A stretch of 18,117 bases of DNA from a virus. The position numbers were made by a program, and so were the translations under genes. Location of the stretch: the IMG/VR virus record IMGVR_UViG_3300045988_142898, positions 1 through 18,117 of that record; one strand, given 5' to 3'. How positions within the stretch are numbered: position 1 is the first letter of the stretch; each line of letters begins with the position of its first letter. The notes under the pieces were generated by a model, which made no database searches, had not been told where the DNA came from, and was given only the letters and a program-made list of their open reading frames with translations. Positions 1,970 through 18,117 of this stretch are shown piece after piece.

Positions 1970-3313
1970 CTATAAGTCAAAGGCACTGCAAATGCTCATA
2001 GGCATCCAGACATTGCAATAAGCGGTTGCGCTGTTGCAATTAATTGTTTTAAATTTACTTGCGGAAGAACCGTCTACTTCTTTGTGATAGACCTGTATCT
2101 TCCATCCCTCTGCAAATCTGATGAACCCGTTGATTGTGAAATAATTGTTCTCTTTATCCCGGCCGAAGAGCGTACAAACAAAGTCTGTAAGTGGCGGTGT
2201 AGTCCAGCCCTCACCAACTTTGAGATTTTTCGGATAAGTAGCAATAGTAACAGGAACATTGGAAATAGCGAGACGAAACCGCCCGTCCAACATGACATTT
2301 GTGTTACCGTCAGAAAATGTGCTTCTCAAAGAAAGATAATTCTTGTTATTATCGTTTGTACTGTCCACTGTACTAGCCATCTCAGAGGAGCTAAAGTTAT
2401 AAAGACTATACTCAATGGTAATATTAGGTTCAGAGCCTAAAATAACACCTGCCATAGTCTGTGCAAGAGCATCCTCACCGTCATTGTTTGGATGAATACC
2501 ATCAGAGGAAAAATACATATAGTCATGGAGTGTAAATGCCGTTGAGGTAATGATTTTCATTCCAGAGGTACGACAGCTTCTCAGATTAGAGCATTCAGTT
2601 CTTAACTGATTTCTTACAGAGCTAGACCTAGACCAACCAATGAAAGCGTAGGTAATATCAGCATAAGGATACAGCTTACGGCATCTGCTAGAAAAAGCGT
2701 CAATTGCCGTCTTTAAATCGGCTTTTGTCTGGTCACGGTCATTCATACCGCCACCAATCAACACCAGAGAAACGTTATTTCTCTCTGCTTCTGTCATTTC
2801 ATTACTGGCTTCATTCAGTAAGTCGATAAATCTTTTTCCTGTTGATGCACTAACATGGGAAAAGCCTACACCACCCGAGTATTTAATCTTGAATGTGCAA
2901 TATGGCATTGAACTTGCCACTTTATCAGCCCAACCAGTTACATTACCGTCTGGCGTGTAGCCCTCTGCATAGCTGTCTCCAATGATAACGACACTTTTTG
3001 CTGTTCTGGTGCTGTTAAATTCCTGTCTCAGAGCTGATAATAACATACCATTATCATCTATATTCTTCTGTAAGTTAGTATCAGCGGTTTTTCTGTCTCT
3101 TACTTCATTAGTAATTGCTGTTTGCAAACTGTTGTCTGTATACTGTCTATCTTCCTTTTCTTTGTCGATAGCTTTTTGAAGAGTTGTATCTGCATCCGTT
3201 CTAGCCTGTGTTTCGTCAGCAATACTTTTTTTAATATCTGTATCGTCATATCGAGGCACATAAACATCCGTGTTACCAATACGAACAAAATCAAATTCTT
3301 TTCTATCTGCCAT
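1970..3313 (-). CDS. Tail fibre/spike protein with SGNH (GDSL) esterase domain (447 aa)
   Basis: SD GGAGG lies upstream. SGNH blocks are present: VVIIGDSYAEG (block I), GGGMNDR (block III) and DGIHPN (block V). The N-terminus has three tandem ~17-aa repeats (E..R...D..LQ.AI). A C-terminal ~150-aa region is predicted to be beta-rich. Confidence 0.85.
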   Translation of the reverse strand: MADRKEFDFVRIGNTDVYVPRYDDTDIKKSIADETQARTDADTTLQKAIDKEKEDRQYTDNSLQTAITNEVRDRKTADTNLQKNIDDNGMLLSALRQEFNSTRTAKSVVIIGDSYAEGYTPDGNVTGWADKVASSMPYCTFKIKYSGGVGFSHVSASTGKRFIDLLNEASNEMTEAERNNVSLVLIGGGMNDRDQTKADLKTAIDAFSSRCRKLYPYADITYAFIGWSRSSSVRNQLRTECSNLRSCRTSGMKIITSTAFTLHDYMYFSSDGIHPNNDGEDALAQTMAGVILGSEPNITIEYSLYNFSSSEMASTVDSTNDNNKNYLSLRSTFSDGNTNVMLDGRFRLAISNVPVTIATYPKNLKVGEGWTTPPLTDFVCTLFGRDKENNYFTINGFIRFAEGWKIQVYHKEVDGSSASKFKTINCNSATAYCNVWMPMSICSAFDL

Positions 3314-3829
3314 TTATGAGACCTCCACTTTTACTGTAACAACATTTGTATAATCAACACGCATCCTGTTATTAACTCTCAGCCTGTACTGGTAGTTGTT
3401 TCTATCAGTTGTAGCTACAAGAGTTAATTTATAAGTCTTAGCACCTTTTTCAGTACAGTCAAACCATGTTGTGCCACTGTCTGTACTATACTGCCATTGA
3501 TAAGCCGTTGCACCTGCAACAAAAGCCGATAAATCAACTGTTTTTGCTTCTTCATTTACAACTATATTCTCTGGCTCACTTAAAATAATTAAAGACTGGT
3601 CAACAATTAATGCACGTTTATCTTCATCATAAGTCAGAGAGACAATCAAGTTGCTAATATAGCTTTGTAAGATCTTATATACAAGGTCAGGCACATTATC
3701 AGCATTATCAATCAGTTCATTGACTTTTTCATATAAGCACTGTAAATTGTTCTGCAATGAAAGAGCATCATTATAAACGATAGGAAGAACAGCACTAAAT
3801 GGCCATATTAAATATAACTCATTTTTCAT
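3314..3829 (-). CDS. Tail fibre-associated protein with C-terminal Ig-like domain (171 aa)
   Basis: SD GTGAGGTGA lies upstream. The N-terminal motif (NNLQCLYEKVNELIDN) and the C-terminal AYQWQYSTDSGTTWFD domain are paralogous to the 4514-5059 product. Confidence 0.85.
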   Translation of the reverse strand: MKNELYLIWPFSAVLPIVYNDALSLQNNLQCLYEKVNELIDNADNVPDLVYKILQSYISNLIVSLTYDEDKRALIVDQSLIILSEPENIVVNEEAKTVDLSAFVAGATAYQWQYSTDSGTTWFDCTEKGAKTYKLTLVATTDRNNYQYRLRVNNRMRVDYTNVVTVKVEVS

Positions 3830-3841
3830 TTTATCACCTCA

Positions 3842-4213
3842 CTAACTTCTATTAACAAATATTGTTGCAGTATCGTTTATTTTATCACCTATTTTACAAG
3901 CAATATAGAACTTATCTCCGCCATTTACACCATAGCCATCTGAGTGGATAGCACTGTCATCATAAAGGTTTATAGTGATAATGTTATAACTTTCACCGTA
4001 TACTACATATACTGTCCAGTTTGTTTTATCATCTGAGACTAACCATATAACATCATTGTTTAATGATTTATTTATTGAAAGTGCTAAATCAACAAGTATA
4101 TTCTTTTTATACATTTCATAATATGAATACCACTTAATCATATTAGCTGTACTATCCCAATTATTGTTTGCAACACCGTTAAATGTTGCTGAACCACAAT
4201 CAAAATCAATCAT
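3842..4213 (-). CDS. C-terminal receptor-binding-like segment (tracked as a 123-aa ORF); probably not an independent gene
   Basis: The frame is open and protein-like, but no SD precedes ATG 4213. It is in frame with 4514-5059 across TAG 4514-4516 and TGA 4280-4282. Confidence 0.5.
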   Translation of the reverse strand: MIDFDCGSATFNGVANNNWDSTANMIKWYSYYEMYKKNILVDLALSINKSLNNDVIWLVSDDKTNWTVYVVYGESYNIITINLYDDSAIHSDGYGVNGGDKFYIACKIGDKINDTATIFVNRS

Positions 4214-4282
4214 ATGGACAGTAGTTGTTATAATGTTTGAGACAATAGTGCTATTATCAGTATTATTTGTGCAAGTAAATCA

Positions 4283-4513
4283 CCACTGTACACTCTTAGT
4301 TGTACCTACTTCACCTGTACCAATACTAATACCATTAGTCTTTGTGCCTTTATCAATGTAGTAGTATGGATAAATATTTTTAGTGCTGTATTTGGCTATC
4401 AACCCATTCACCACCAAGATTAAACTGCCATTTTGATTGCTCATAGGGAAAGAGCTTGTTGTATACGATAAACCATTGTTTTCGTATAAGTCAACATAAT
4501 CATCATGACCATA
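4283..4513 (-). other. 77 stop-free in-frame codons between a TAG and a TGA (untracked coding-like segment)
   Basis: My manual translation is YGHDDYVDLYENNGLSYTTSSFPMSNQNGSLILVVNGLIAKYSTKNIYPYYYIDKGTKTNGISIGTGEVGTTKSVQW. The internal ATG at 4444 has no SD. Confidence 0.4.
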
Positions 4514-5059
4514 CTATTCCTGTGTTATTGTTACTTCTGGTTTAGTGTATTCAATAACAATACCTTCTGTATAATAAGTATACTTATCATTCTGTAACTT
4601 GCATCTGAACTCTTTTTTATCACCGCTGTTATAAAATGTAACAGGCACTCTGCAATTTGCTCTATTAGAACCATCTGCTTCTAAGTCAACAAACAACCCA
4701 TTATCATTCTTATATTGCCACTGATAAAAAGTAACATCGCCCTCAACATTACTTAACCCTACTTCAATGTTTTTGACAGGCGTATAAATAGGTGATTCTG
4801 GCTTAATCAAATCACATCTGATAGGATTTTCAAAAGCAATGCACTTTAATTCCTCACAATATCCACCCTGTAATTTCATATGGCTAGCATAAACATCTAA
4901 CAACTTGTCAACTACTTCTTTGGCGTTTGTATCATCACCAATCAGTTGGTTGATTTTAAATGTTAACTTATTCATGCTTTCAAGTGGGGTGATATTTTCA
5001 TCATAGATAGTTGGTGCAAGTGGCCTATTACCAATAGGGTTAAAATTATTCTTCTCCAT
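4514..5059 (-). CDS. Tail fibre protein, N-terminal anchor plus Ig-like domain (181 aa)
   Basis: The tracked ORF starts at 5098, but ATG 5059 has GGGGGTG 5-6 nt upstream. The product starts MEKNNFNPIG, carries the FYQWQYKNDNGLFVD Ig-like motif and ends at TAG. Confidence 0.8.
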   Translation of the reverse strand: MEKNNFNPIGNRPLAPTIYDENITPLESMNKLTFKINQLIGDDTNAKEVVDKLLDVYASHMKLQGGYCEELKCIAFENPIRCDLIKPESPIYTPVKNIEVGLSNVEGDVTFYQWQYKNDNGLFVDLEADGSNRANCRVPVTFYNSGDKKEFRCKLQNDKYTYYTEGIVIEYTKPEVTITQE

Positions 5060-5768
5060 CAAAGCACCCCCAGTCCCACACCTGCATAAACAAGTCACTT
5101 AGTTCACTAATAACCATACGATCAATATTCTTTAACTTTTCAGCATATTCATTTATCATATATGCATAAGTCATACCACTACGTTTGCCTATGATATGCT
5201 GTACATAGTCTTCTGTCGTATTAAAATTACTACTCGATTTAAGTGCATTAGTATTTTTATTAGTGTTTGTACTATCTGAAATATCAGCACTAGATAAATA
5301 TCTGTCACTTTTAATACCTTCCAAACCACCTTGAGGTGTATTGCTGTGTCTATTGATATCCTGTCCACTATATTCATTGTTACTGTTACCACTTGAATTA
5401 GCACTGTTATCACCTTTGCTTTTTCTGTTGTGGTCAATAGTCACATCTGTATCACTAAGAATATCATACTCTTTATTAAATGCTTTATATAATTTGTTAT
5501 AATACGGCATGATAACAGAAAGTTTAGCGTCAAGTCTTAACTGAAACAGGCCAAACGTTTCTGAACCAATCTCTCTGGTATAATAATGCTTTAAAATCTT
5601 CTTTGCAAGTATAGAGCGGTATTCGGGAGTAAATGTTACAAATGATGGTGGAAATATCTTATCCCAACTTTTGTCAATAACATCATCAATCGACATATAC
5701 CCCTTGCCACGCTCATAGCCTGCAAGTGATTCACATATATATCTGATTTGTGTTGTATAGCTACTCAT
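5046..5768 (-). CDS. Lower collar protein (phi29 gp11-like, 240 aa)
   Basis: It lies directly after the portal gene. The N-terminal region (YYTREIGSETFGLF...MPYYNKLY) matches my recollection of lower-collar proteins of small podophages. There is a central S/N-rich low-complexity stretch, and SD AAGAGG lies upstream. Confidence 0.75.
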   Translation of the reverse strand: MSSYTTQIRYICESLAGYERGKGYMSIDDVIDKSWDKIFPPSFVTFTPEYRSILAKKILKHYYTREIGSETFGLFQLRLDAKLSVIMPYYNKLYKAFNKEYDILSDTDVTIDHNRKSKGDNSANSSGNSNNEYSGQDINRHSNTPQGGLEGIKSDRYLSSADISDSTNTNKNTNALKSSSNFNTTEDYVQHIIGKRSGMTYAYMINEYAEKLKNIDRMVISELSDLFMQVWDWGCFDGEE

Positions 5769-8284: not shown

Positions 8285-9736
8285 CTAACTAGCTTCATAT
8301 TTACCAACATTAATAGTAATAAATTTACTAATATTTGTACCCTTAACTGTGGCTTTTACAACGATTTTGCCATAATAGTTTTCTTTTTTTTCAATACTTT
8401 TACCTGTAATATATCCATTACTATGAACCACAGCACTATTTGTATTATCTGAATAAAGTGTAAAAATTAAATCTTTTATACCACCTGTTACAGTATTAAC
8501 TGTGCCTGTAACTATAGTAGAAAAATTTGTACCAACAGGTGGTACTGTGCCATATAAAACAGAAATTGATGTTTCTTTAAAATTTATAGTTGTATTATTT
8601 TCAGTCTGTTTTTCAACTAAATTATTAGGAATAACCGCTACTGCATTTGCAAATGGACTAACAGCATAAGTCTGCCACATATGCAAGAAGTAATTATGGT
8701 CAAGTGTGTTGGCAACAGGCATATCACGCATTTCAAATACATTATCATAAATCTGAACAAAATCTTCGTCAATAATGACGCCTGCGACCTTATCGAGAAA
8801 TGCCATGTCGTCAGCACTAGGCTCTTTATAAGTTGGGTCATTTGCAAAAGCTTTGTTAAGTCTTGTAATGTCAAGATGACCAAGGCCGTCAATCAAAATA
8901 CGTCTGTTCAGATAATCTGCATATGGCAACTGGAAAGCAGATGCTAAAACATTGGTATCAATATTAGCATCATAATCAGTATTAATTAAGATAACTTTCT
9001 TGTCAGAATCAGTAAATGTTGTTACACCTGCAATGTTGTAATCAGTAGACATAAACTGAAAGTCGTTTGATACTTTACGCATCTGAGTAGCACAGAGTTT
9101 ATATTTATCAGCACTTGTATCATCAAATCTGTAGTAAGCAAGCTTACCATTTAAAATATGCTGACCGATGAGATATTTTGTAATATTAAATTCGTCATAA
9201 GCGGCCGCTGTATAAACAGACTGGATAATACCGCTGATTAACTCATCCATGCCAGACCACGACTTAAATGCTGATTTAAGCATTGCCCTGTTAACTGTGA
9301 CTGGATAAGTAAGCTGTGAGTTCATGATGTAAAATGTAGTTCTTACATCTGGTTCGTATCTCTTAAACAGATTTGTTGCGGTATCCGCTCCACTTCCTGC
9401 AATCTCGCCGTACTGGTATACTTTTGCAATGTTAACAAAAATATCCTCTACCGTCTCACCTACATCAATCACACCTTTTTTCAGTGTTGCAAGTGGGTTC
9501 GTGTACAGACGGCTTGCGATTCTTGCAAAAGCAATCCTGTTAACAAGAGTTGAAAGAAACTCATTTTCAAGTGCAGGGTTATTCATGATGATAGCCCCGA
9601 TTCCTCTAAGGGAATCACTATCTGCTGTTACATACGGGACGTAGTCTTTGTAGTAACTTGAAGCTGAATTCTTTACAGCATTGATAACATCCGCACTAAT
9701 ATTTGTATTTGTTGCAATTCTCGGTTTTGTAGGCAT
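8285..9736 (-). CDS. Major capsid protein (phi29 gp8-like, 483 aa) with C-terminal Ig-like (BIG2-type) domain
   Basis: DVINAVKNS...YKDYVPYVTA...FLSTLVNRIA and HNYFLHMWQTYAVSPFANAVAV parallel the gp8 motifs. The C-terminal ~90 aa are beta-rich. The start overlaps the scaffold stop (TAATG). Confidence 0.93.
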   Translation of the reverse strand: MPTKPRIATNTNISADVINAVKNSASSYYKDYVPYVTADSDSLRGIGAIIMNNPALENEFLSTLVNRIAFARIASRLYTNPLATLKKGVIDVGETVEDIFVNIAKVYQYGEIAGSGADTATNLFKRYEPDVRTTFYIMNSQLTYPVTVNRAMLKSAFKSWSGMDELISGIIQSVYTAAAYDEFNITKYLIGQHILNGKLAYYRFDDTSADKYKLCATQMRKVSNDFQFMSTDYNIAGVTTFTDSDKKVILINTDYDANIDTNVLASAFQLPYADYLNRRILIDGLGHLDITRLNKAFANDPTYKEPSADDMAFLDKVAGVIIDEDFVQIYDNVFEMRDMPVANTLDHNYFLHMWQTYAVSPFANAVAVIPNNLVEKQTENNTTINFKETSISVLYGTVPPVGTNFSTIVTGTVNTVTGGIKDLIFTLYSDNTNSAVVHSNGYITGKSIEKKENYYGKIVVKATVKGTNISKFITINVGKYEAS

Positions 9737-11845: not shown

Positions 11846-12907
11846 TTAAGTTAACAAGCCTAATTTATCAATGGCATTAAGGAATCTGTATTTGCACGAG
11901 TAGGTTTCATAGTAGATGTATCCCAGTGCATCCCATTCACCATAAATACTGTACTTCATCTTAAAAGCTTTCTTACTGTCTTTGTTTCCGTCGTAATATT
12001 CCTCAAACTCACAATATTTATGCGTGCTTACATACAAGAAATTTGATCTAGACTTTGATAAATAAATATAGATTTTACCGAACTGACATACAGCAATTAA
12101 ATCTTTCGGATTCCCATACTTTCTCAATATGTGCGCACCATCATTATATGAAAACTCATTACTATTAGCCATCTTTGCAAACTCTGACTCGTTACCAATA
12201 GCCTTAAATAATGCTGTTTTCTTTCTCATTTCAGAAATAGGTGACTTCATGATATTAAGAAGTAGTATACCTCTATCTTCCAAAAACCTTACTTCCTGCC
12301 CTTTTCTTTGCATTTCATCATAAATGTCAACTAGATTGAATGTGTCAAGAACAGCATTATAAATATTATTTGAGTTTGCCATCATCCACATACGTAGTGG
12401 TGGCCGACCTAATACTTCTCTGTTACCTGAAACAGTAACATACATATTTGTAACGGCATCGCCCTCATTTTTAATTCGGTTGACATGGTTTTCTGGAATA
12501 AACTCATCGTAGATAATGTCTGTAATTGTGCCACCACCAAAACCACGATATTTACTTACAGCCTTTAACGAAACTGCAATTCCGATATCTTCATAAACTG
12601 GCTTTTCTTCCTCAGTCAATCCAACTATGCGAACTATTCTGGAAGCATTTCTCTCTTTTACTATATGAATATCTTCTCCCATATCCTTATTTAGCTGTGC
12701 AAACGGATTGTACTTCTCAATAGAACACAAGTCTATTTCGTCTTGTGTTCGCCTAACAAGCATAGGTGTCCACTTTTCCTCAATGCATCGTTTGAATACA
12801 CCATAGGTTTTACCTACCTGTCTTGCACCGACCATTACGATGAATGTAGGCTTAAAACCCAGTATATAATTAAAATTTAACCATCCATCTTTATCGTATA
12901 AGCTCAT
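11846..12907 (-). CDS. DNA encapsidation ATPase (phi29 gp16-like, 353 aa)
   Basis: Walker A is VGARQVGKTY (phi29 IGARGIGKSY) and Walker B is IIYDEFIPE (phi29 IVFDEFIRE). MMANSNNIYNAV parallels CLSNAVSVVNPY. SD GAAAGGTGG lies upstream. Confidence 0.93.
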   Translation of the reverse strand: MSLYDKDGWLNFNYILGFKPTFIVMVGARQVGKTYGVFKRCIEEKWTPMLVRRTQDEIDLCSIEKYNPFAQLNKDMGEDIHIVKERNASRIVRIVGLTEEEKPVYEDIGIAVSLKAVSKYRGFGGGTITDIIYDEFIPENHVNRIKNEGDAVTNMYVTVSGNREVLGRPPLRMWMMANSNNIYNAVLDTFNLVDIYDEMQRKGQEVRFLEDRGILLLNIMKSPISEMRKKTALFKAIGNESEFAKMANSNEFSYNDGAHILRKYGNPKDLIAVCQFGKIYIYLSKSRSNFLYVSTHKYCEFEEYYDGNKDSKKAFKMKYSIYGEWDALGYIYYETYSCKYRFLNAIDKLGLLT

Positions 12908-18005: not shown

Positions 18006-18117
18006 CCCCTAGCAAGAACCGTGCCAACTTTTCAAATGTTAGCCTCGAGTAACTACACAATGCGTCACTTTCTAAGAAACTGGGAAAATTCTAAGATTCT
18101 GCCCCCTTACGAAGTTT
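18006..18117. repeat. Right inverted terminal repeat (112 bp)
   Basis: Exact reverse complement of 1-112. Confidence 0.95.

Follow-up and report, generated by a model that had tools for sequence, protein, structure and literature searches.

The interrupted appendage gene and its genome

The window analysed here, the whole 18,117 bp of IMG/VR virus record IMGVR_UViG_3300045988_142898, is the complete linear genome (35.5% G+C) of a protein-primed, phi29-like podophage; our subject is a gene within it whose reading frame is interrupted by two in-frame stop codons. The genome is bounded by perfect terminal inverted repeats of 112 bp (positions 1–112 and 18006–18117), the ends of which are 96–97% conserved in the related sequences L001 and L081. 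Gene order is phi29-like: PolB (724 aa), an SSB-like protein, the encapsidation ATPase, a CHAP/lysozyme tail hydrolase, scaffold and major capsid protein, then a gp9-like tail knob, the connector and the lower collar. Pfam matches within the window are to Caud_tail_N and phi29_gp9_C; Phage_connector, Podovirus_Gp16, Phi29_MCP and Phi29_Phage_SSB are annotated on colinear relatives and on an identical scaffold (L080). Three appendage-type genes follow the lower collar on the minus strand. The interrupted gene is the first of them, and its position directly after the lower-collar gene marks it as the putative collar appendage gene of a phi29-like protein-primed podovirus.

The source is a human metagenome of the Human Microbiome Project (HMP; ENA ERZ28576433, SAMN00036881), and an NCBI third-party deposit ('MAG TPA: Bacteriophage sp.') carries two products of the locus as DAX30683.1 and DAX30685.1. 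Among cultured phages the closest are Clostridium symbiosum podophages from the human gut, with 44% identity in the capsid protein, and it is via this protein only that distant relatives among cultured phages were found; on the strength of this match, gut Lachnospiraceae/Clostridia are candidate hosts. No cultured relative of the fibre region was detected among INPHARED phages, either by megablast of the region or by tblastn of its two downstream pieces.

Translation of positions 3842–5059 (minus strand) gives 406 codons in a single frame, from ATG 5059 to TAG 3844–3842, as a first-pass annotation made from the sequence alone had stated: 181 sense codons, TAG as codon 182 (4516–4514), 77 sense codons, TGA as codon 260 (4282–4280), 145 sense codons and the final TAG. 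Only three entries of the list of open reading frames (ORFs) fall at the locus: 4514–5098/5059, 4280–4444 (54 aa) and 3842–4213 (123 aa). The pieces of the gene and the lesions that separate or alter them are as follows.

4517–5059, minus strand: piece A, the surviving 5′ part, encoding the 181-aa product (87–92% aa identity to residues 1–181 of intact homologues)
4283–4513, minus strand: piece B, 77 codons, residues 183–259, the second beta domain (tblastn, 42–75% aa identity, same frame and colinear; now cut off from any start codon)
3845–4279, minus strand: piece C, 145 codons, the third beta domain (261–338) fused to the last (~447–517) (tblastn and protein comparison)
4514–4516, minus strand: lesion 1, TAG at codon 182, a Tyr codon (TAT/TAC) changed at its third position (alignment with relatives)
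4431–4434, minus strand: lesion 2, loss of 1 nt from an A-run, CAAAAATGG (ancestral) to CAAAATGG (nucleotide alignment with seven relatives)
4391–4393, minus strand: lesion 3, compensating 1-nt insertion, ancestral AGCCAATAC to AGCCAAATAC (nucleotide alignment; 52 nt downstream of lesion 2 in the alignment)
4280–4282, minus strand: lesion 4, Arg codon 260 replaced by TGA, one first-position change from AGA or CGA (alignment with relatives)
4045–4046, minus strand: lesion 5, junction 4046/4045 of an in-frame deletion of 324 nt (108 codons) (comparison with relatives)

Stop-free runs of this length are unlikely by chance, a point made earlier for the 77 codons and upheld here: under the base composition of the strand P is ~2e-3 for 77 codons and ~1e-5 for 145, and 1.6% and 0.1% of antisense-frame stop-free runs reach these respective lengths. 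At the level of sequence it is homology that settles the matter: the downstream pieces are coding-derived. Piece B shares ~95% nucleotide identity with L081 and L083, and piece C aligns by tblastn as two blocks (query residues 1–78 and 75–145) that lie ~325 nt apart in relatives.

The start of the gene overlaps the lower-collar gene by 14 nt and has a G-rich motif (GGGGGTG) resembling a Shine–Dalgarno (SD) sequence upstream; on these two grounds ATG 5059 is a more likely start than GTG 5098. Gene callers sometimes choose the latter, which yields 531-aa homologues starting MTCLCKCGTGGAL (window 5046–5098, minus strand). Neither ATG 4444 nor ATG 4213 is preceded by an SD-like motif, as the first-pass annotation had noted, whereas most genes of the genome have one. 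Of the other in-frame starts, GTG 4411 is abutted by GGTG (spacing 0) and a weak GGTG lies 9 nt upstream of TTG 4402; both starts fall within a stretch of piece B that is out of its ancestral frame.

Intact homologues and five lesions

Relatives were sought with the adjacent lower-collar protein as probe, which recovered 79 related loci from IMG/VR; the set for DNA comparison comprised nine IMG/VR relatives (L001–L008 and L010) and three Logan contigs (L081–L083). In the nine close relatives (91–97% collar identity) the stretch that matches pieces A, B and C forms a single unbroken ORF, colinear and in the same frame, with a length of 517–519 aa in all save L002 (309–311 aa). The closest contigs, L081–L083 (88% aa identity), likewise hold an intact 517-aa gene. 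When proteins were searched with the concatenated sequence, 98 clusters were recovered; the complete homologues among them are all 508–531 aa long, and the only two that are shorter, at 331 and 388 aa, represent partial sequences. Some 107 complete homologous proteins are uninterrupted, and the 181-aa product is the sole short member listed in its 90% cluster. Alignment at the two stops, suggested earlier as a check, revealed sense codons: codon 182 is Tyr (TAT/TAC) in 12 of the 12 relatives with DNA, and codon 260 is Arg (AGA/CGA/CGT) in all 10 that retain it.

Structure prediction provides a picture of what these homologues encode. In an AlphaFold2 (AF2) model of intact homologue P0002 (54 sequences, mean pLDDT 81) the first ~80 residues are helical and of low confidence, and are followed by five confident beta-sandwich domains. 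A Foldseek search with this model returned only tandem arrays of immunoglobulin (Ig) or fibronectin type III (FN3) domains, among them phage Ig-domain proteins, Hoc-like proteins and annotated tail fibres; Pfam and PHROGs recognised neither pieces A, B and C nor the intact homologue. The intact protein of ~517 aa is accordingly modelled as a bead-like array of five Ig/FN3-like domains behind a putative helical N-terminal virion anchor. Receptor binding by such a protein, an assumption of the first-pass annotation, is plausible from the position of its gene. No recognisable receptor-binding or enzymatic domain appeared in the model or in searches of the intact protein, and as modelled the domains have more in common with accessory Ig-like modules of the adhesion type than with a dedicated receptor-binding head.

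Five lesions distinguish the window from these homologues, all of them 3′ of codon 181 and within ~1.2 kb. The two stops each lie one substitution from a sense codon. At codon 182 the window reads GAA TAG TAT GGT CAT where L010, L081 and L083 have GAA TAT TAT GGT CAT; at codon 260 it reads CAG TGG TGA TTT ACT where L004–L007, L081 and L083 have CAG TGG AGA TTT ACT (the codon is CGA in L008 and CGT in L010). Given the sense codons in the relatives, both stops are private and derived changes.

The remaining lesions, an indel pair and the loss of 108 codons from piece C, had not been recognised in the first-pass annotation. Between the 1-nt deletion and the 1-nt insertion, codons 210–223 read NGSLILVVNGLIAK in the window and KWQFKLSDEWVDSQ in the family: 14 residues are scrambled, a peptide found in none of 113 homologous proteins, and the −1/+1 pair removes W211 and W219, both invariant in 54 aligned homologues. 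The 77 middle codons, described earlier as ordinary protein sequence, are therefore coding-derived and homologous as supposed, but ~14 of them are out of the ancestral frame. The junction of the fifth lesion lies between short direct repeats (AAT GAT GTT ATA ... TGG TTA) that open two successive Ig-like modules, and the deletion removes exactly one module; in the AF2 model the corresponding strands begin at residues 338 and 450.

Outside this stretch the genome is undamaged wherever it was compared: 12 of 12 other genes align full-length with L083, in one frame and with no stops. Lesions such as the additional ones here (the −1/+1 pair and the 324-nt deletion) are typically seen once a gene is no longer under selection.

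Decay, readthrough, separate genes or error

Together the above analyses make it very probable that the distal part of an accessory appendage gene has become a lineage-specific pseudogene through private mutations. Orthologues are intact, the disabling changes are derived and peculiar to one lineage, and the lesions are multiple, independent and confined to the affected part. Of the three explanations put forward in the first-pass annotation, two converge on this outcome, namely a recently inactivated gene and nonsense variants fixed in the sequenced population: the stops are private single-base changes, and relatives have one continuous protein. The proposed course of events starts from an ancestral single gene just 3′ of the lower-collar gene, where phi29 has gp12, with a product of ~517 aa as in relatives. 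One lineage would then have gained Tyr182 to TAG, the −1/+1 indel pair in domain 2, Arg260 to TGA and the repeat-mediated in-frame deletion of domain 4, not necessarily in this order. Translation would now end at TAG 4516–4514 and leave a 181-aa stub, with the 666 nt downstream (3845–4513) an untranslated and decaying remnant.

The stub consists of the helical anchor module (about residues 1–80) and a complete first Ig-like domain. It probably still assembles on the collar, because its architecture equals that of the neighbouring 171-aa paralogue; other natural cases of an anchor with a small domain are a ~199-aa gene in a more distant relative (L009) and anchor-bearing proteins of 126–129 aa in other loci. 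Window-specific substitutions in piece A number 6 nonsynonymous to 10 synonymous (omega ~0.14), which suggests that the stub is still under purifying selection; in B and C there are 12 to 5 (omega ~0.54). The phage would remain viable since the distal Ig-like domains are accessory (and presumably dispensable) and its other appendage proteins, of 171 aa and 447 aa (an SGNH esterase), are intact.

Several observations weigh against inactivation. The omega of 0.54 in B and C is not statistically separable from the values of intact lineages (range 0.06–2.07 on small counts; 0.24 in L010, and 9 nonsynonymous to 1 synonymous in L083) and, because of this overlap, long neutral decay is not demonstrated. 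The indels together keep the overall frame, and there are no further stops in 222 codons: a kept frame is compatible with very recent inactivation, but is also to be expected if the frame still mattered. Finally, the alleles are supported by one sample only. The 7–8 database records that carry exactly these 181-aa and 123-aa products are repeat deposits of this one HMP genome (L080 matches it with 100% identity), and scans of IMG/VR found no independent carrier of the TAG or the TGA allele.

The kept frame also speaks for functional readthrough, whether leaky or dependent on a host suppressor, in which mostly the 181-aa protein would be made together with a little 259-aa and 405-aa fibre. A single frame runs on through the two stops, the indel pair and the deletion; recoding is a known way for phages to add Ig/FN3-like domains in sub-stoichiometric amounts, with SPP1 gp17.1* as an example; and folding of the 80 nt 3′ of the TAG is somewhat stronger than that of shuffled sequences (z = −2.35). 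However, that sequence is also present in relatives with Tyr at the position, and the fold is thus not tied to the stop; 3′ of the TGA there is no structure (z = −0.45). Neither stop is conserved in ~110 homologues. The extended product would hold a scrambled domain 2 without its two invariant Trp residues, and two successive events would multiply two small probabilities. Both TAG (~8 predicted genes) and TGA (~5) serve as normal terminators in the genome. A stop codon followed by U is a strong termination context in E. coli, and both stops have U next, although the host here may differ. Qbeta A1 protein is made by UGA readthrough of a conserved stop, with an extension that is essential and intact. 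The present locus resembles it in having an in-frame stop between a short product and a C-terminal extension, and differs in that the stops are private to one genome, that there are two in series and that the extension is damaged. With no conserved stop, no intact extension and neither stimulatory context nor suppressor tRNA, the locus does not look like a recoding site, and the nested fibres of 181, 259 and 405 aa envisaged in the first-pass annotation now seem highly improbable. Two related candidates were rejected. Genome-wide recoding (code 4, code 15 or similar) conflicts with the use of TAA, TAG and TGA alike to end normal genes and with the intactness of the other genes under table 11; a phage-borne suppressor was discarded on finding no tRNA gene in the genome.

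Alternatively, the three pieces may be separate small genes (181, 54–77 and 123–145 aa), each independently translated, and gene callers do annotate the 123-aa ORF from ATG 4213 (DAX30685.1). Yet the homologues are one continuous ORF, and not the three genuinely separate genes for which the first-pass annotation had allowed. ATG 4213 and ATG 4444 go back to conserved Met codons inside the ancestral gene, and neither has an SD motif, on which grounds internal initiation was rejected; the 123-aa product, moreover, is a singleton cluster among 15 billion proteins. We regard this arrangement as extremely improbable; the locus is better described as one broken gene.

The dependence on a single sample bears on the possibility of a sequencing, assembly or consensus artefact, in which errors or minority variants that entered the consensus would account for the stops and homopolymer indels, and the real gene would be intact (possibly one domain shorter). 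Every record goes back to one HMP sample; two lesions alter the length of A-runs, a classic type of error for some platforms; and no other carrier was found in IMG/VR or in JGI metagenomes. (The single JGI match, L084, was dismissed as an unrelated GC-rich contig with a chance fit to the degenerate pattern.) But errors would need to cluster in one gene: 1.2 kb holds all five lesions, and the 12 other genes that were compared have none. The A-runs are merely 2–5 nt long, and the two base substitutions are atypical of consensus errors at a coverage that assembles a complete genome with both terminal repeats. At least two assemblies of this sample exist (18,117 and 17,893 bp), identical over the 6.5 kb compared. 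An artefact is therefore unlikely.

Loss of the distal domains may also be adaptive and not neutral, a view we hold to be very unlikely. The stub could alter adsorption, for instance if mucus, non-host surfaces or decoy glycans were bound less well or if the SGNH-esterase fibre became exposed, and residual natural readthrough at both stops could supply a trace of longer molecules. Were this true, the variation in domain number (the 324-nt deletion in the window and a 208-codon deletion in L002) would amount to recurrent tuning in gut phi29-like phages.

An inactivated accessory gene is an ordinary explanation. The closest analogue is stf of lambda PaPa, where a frameshift splits a side tail fibre gene that is intact in Ur-lambda and non-essential for plaque formation (Hendrix & Duda 1992, as reported in PMC12617516). 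Both cases involve an accessory fibre gene of a viable phage that has been split into leftover ORFs by disabling lesions while relatives remain intact. They differ in that the lambda case is one frameshift from laboratory stocks, whereas the gene of this wild gut phage has two nonsense codons together with a compensated indel pair and the loss of a domain; furthermore, the present gene encodes an Ig-domain array on a phi29-like podovirus, of which the dispensability is presumed.

Comparison with phi29 itself holds for gene position. As with gp12, the lower-collar (gp11-like) gene lies directly 5′ of the appendage gene, and the connector and gp9-like tail knob also come before it. Phage phi29 gp12 is a beta-helix tailspike with an autochaperone, and no similarity to it was found in sequence (Pfam and PHROG gave no match) or in fold (the fold search yielded Ig/FN3 arrays only). 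In fold the nearest counterparts are the tandem Ig/FN3-like beta-sandwiches on phage structural proteins, such as T4 Hoc, SPP1 gp17.1* and the domains described by Fraser et al. 2006. Phage domains of this kind are virion-exposed, often non-essential and thought to mediate weak adhesion (PMC6316719), and the FN3 C-terminus of SPP1 gp17.1* is non-essential (PMC6316719). A conserved programmed frameshift appends the extra domain in SPP1 and some other cases; the interruption here is mutational and not conserved.

The outcome is mainly negative, in that a broken gene lies behind what had been a candidate for nested fibres made by double readthrough. For annotation it means that the hypothetical proteins DAX30683.1 (181 aa) and DAX30685.1 (123 aa) should be merged into one disrupted appendage gene. 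The distal Ig/FN3-like domains of the collar appendage appear dispensable in at least one natural gut phage population, which fits the view of phage Ig-like domains as accessory adhesion modules, and the gene itself offers an instance of modular length variation by repeat-mediated, domain-precise deletion.

Neighbouring genes and variation among relatives

The two other appendage genes lie immediately downstream.

3314–3829, minus strand: intact 171-aa paralogue with the same anchor and one Ig-like domain (BLASTP E=1e-10; 92–94% conserved in relatives)
1970–3313, minus strand: intact 447-aa SGNH/GDSL-esterase, fibre-like, the third appendage gene (Pfam Lipase_GDSL, 27.9 bits, cutoff 23.6)

The N-terminal module is common to the 171-aa protein and the 181-aa product, and it also forms the N-terminus of all proteins whose genes directly follow the collar gene in 57 related loci, with lengths of 81 to 1,067 aa. 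From this recurrence we infer that the module serves in attachment to the collar. The Ig-like region of the 171-aa paralogue matches PHROG tail and head proteins. The 447-aa protein, 78–91% conserved in relatives and with a coiled-coil-like N-terminus, is, judging by its domain match, likely a glycan-deacetylating host-recognition protein; it is a candidate for the host-recognition function that allows the phage to tolerate loss of the Ig-array.

The appendage gene also varies among relatives with no stops in its frame. In L002 (UViG_3300045988_130293, L002:6710-7639) an independent in-frame deletion has removed ~208 codons, and the remaining ORF of 309–311 aa is intact; alongside the 108-codon deletion of the window this suggests recurrent variation in domain number. 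The second domain (residues 183–259) is hypervariable among close relatives, with 42–75% aa identity versus 87–92% for the anchor and first domain, and the genes that flank the appendage gene are 92–97% identical in the same relatives. No reverse transcriptase or diversity-generating retroelement was found in these genomes to accompany the hypervariable domain.

A different arrangement is found in L009 (UViG_3300012662_000058, L009:6710-8549; 69% collar identity). Here the anchor and first Ig domain form the stand-alone gene of ~199 aa, and the Ig-array is replaced by an unrelated ORF of 415–436 aa in another frame, with probable start ATG 7302. The replacement overlaps the upstream stop by 8 nt, is without the anchor module and has a weak Pfam match to polysaccharide deacetylase (E=0.0085). 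This may represent a swap of a distal-module cassette, possibly with the short anchor protein as adaptor.

Two further observations concern packaging and the capsid. An Rfam scan of the whole window gave no match at gathering thresholds, the phi29 packaging RNA (pRNA) family included, although a phi29-like packaging ATPase is encoded at 11846–12907. The major capsid protein (483 aa, 8285–9736, minus strand) matches cultured relatives only over residues 1 to ~365; its C-terminal ~110 residues form an additional module that may be an Ig-like decoration domain like the one in phi29 gp8.

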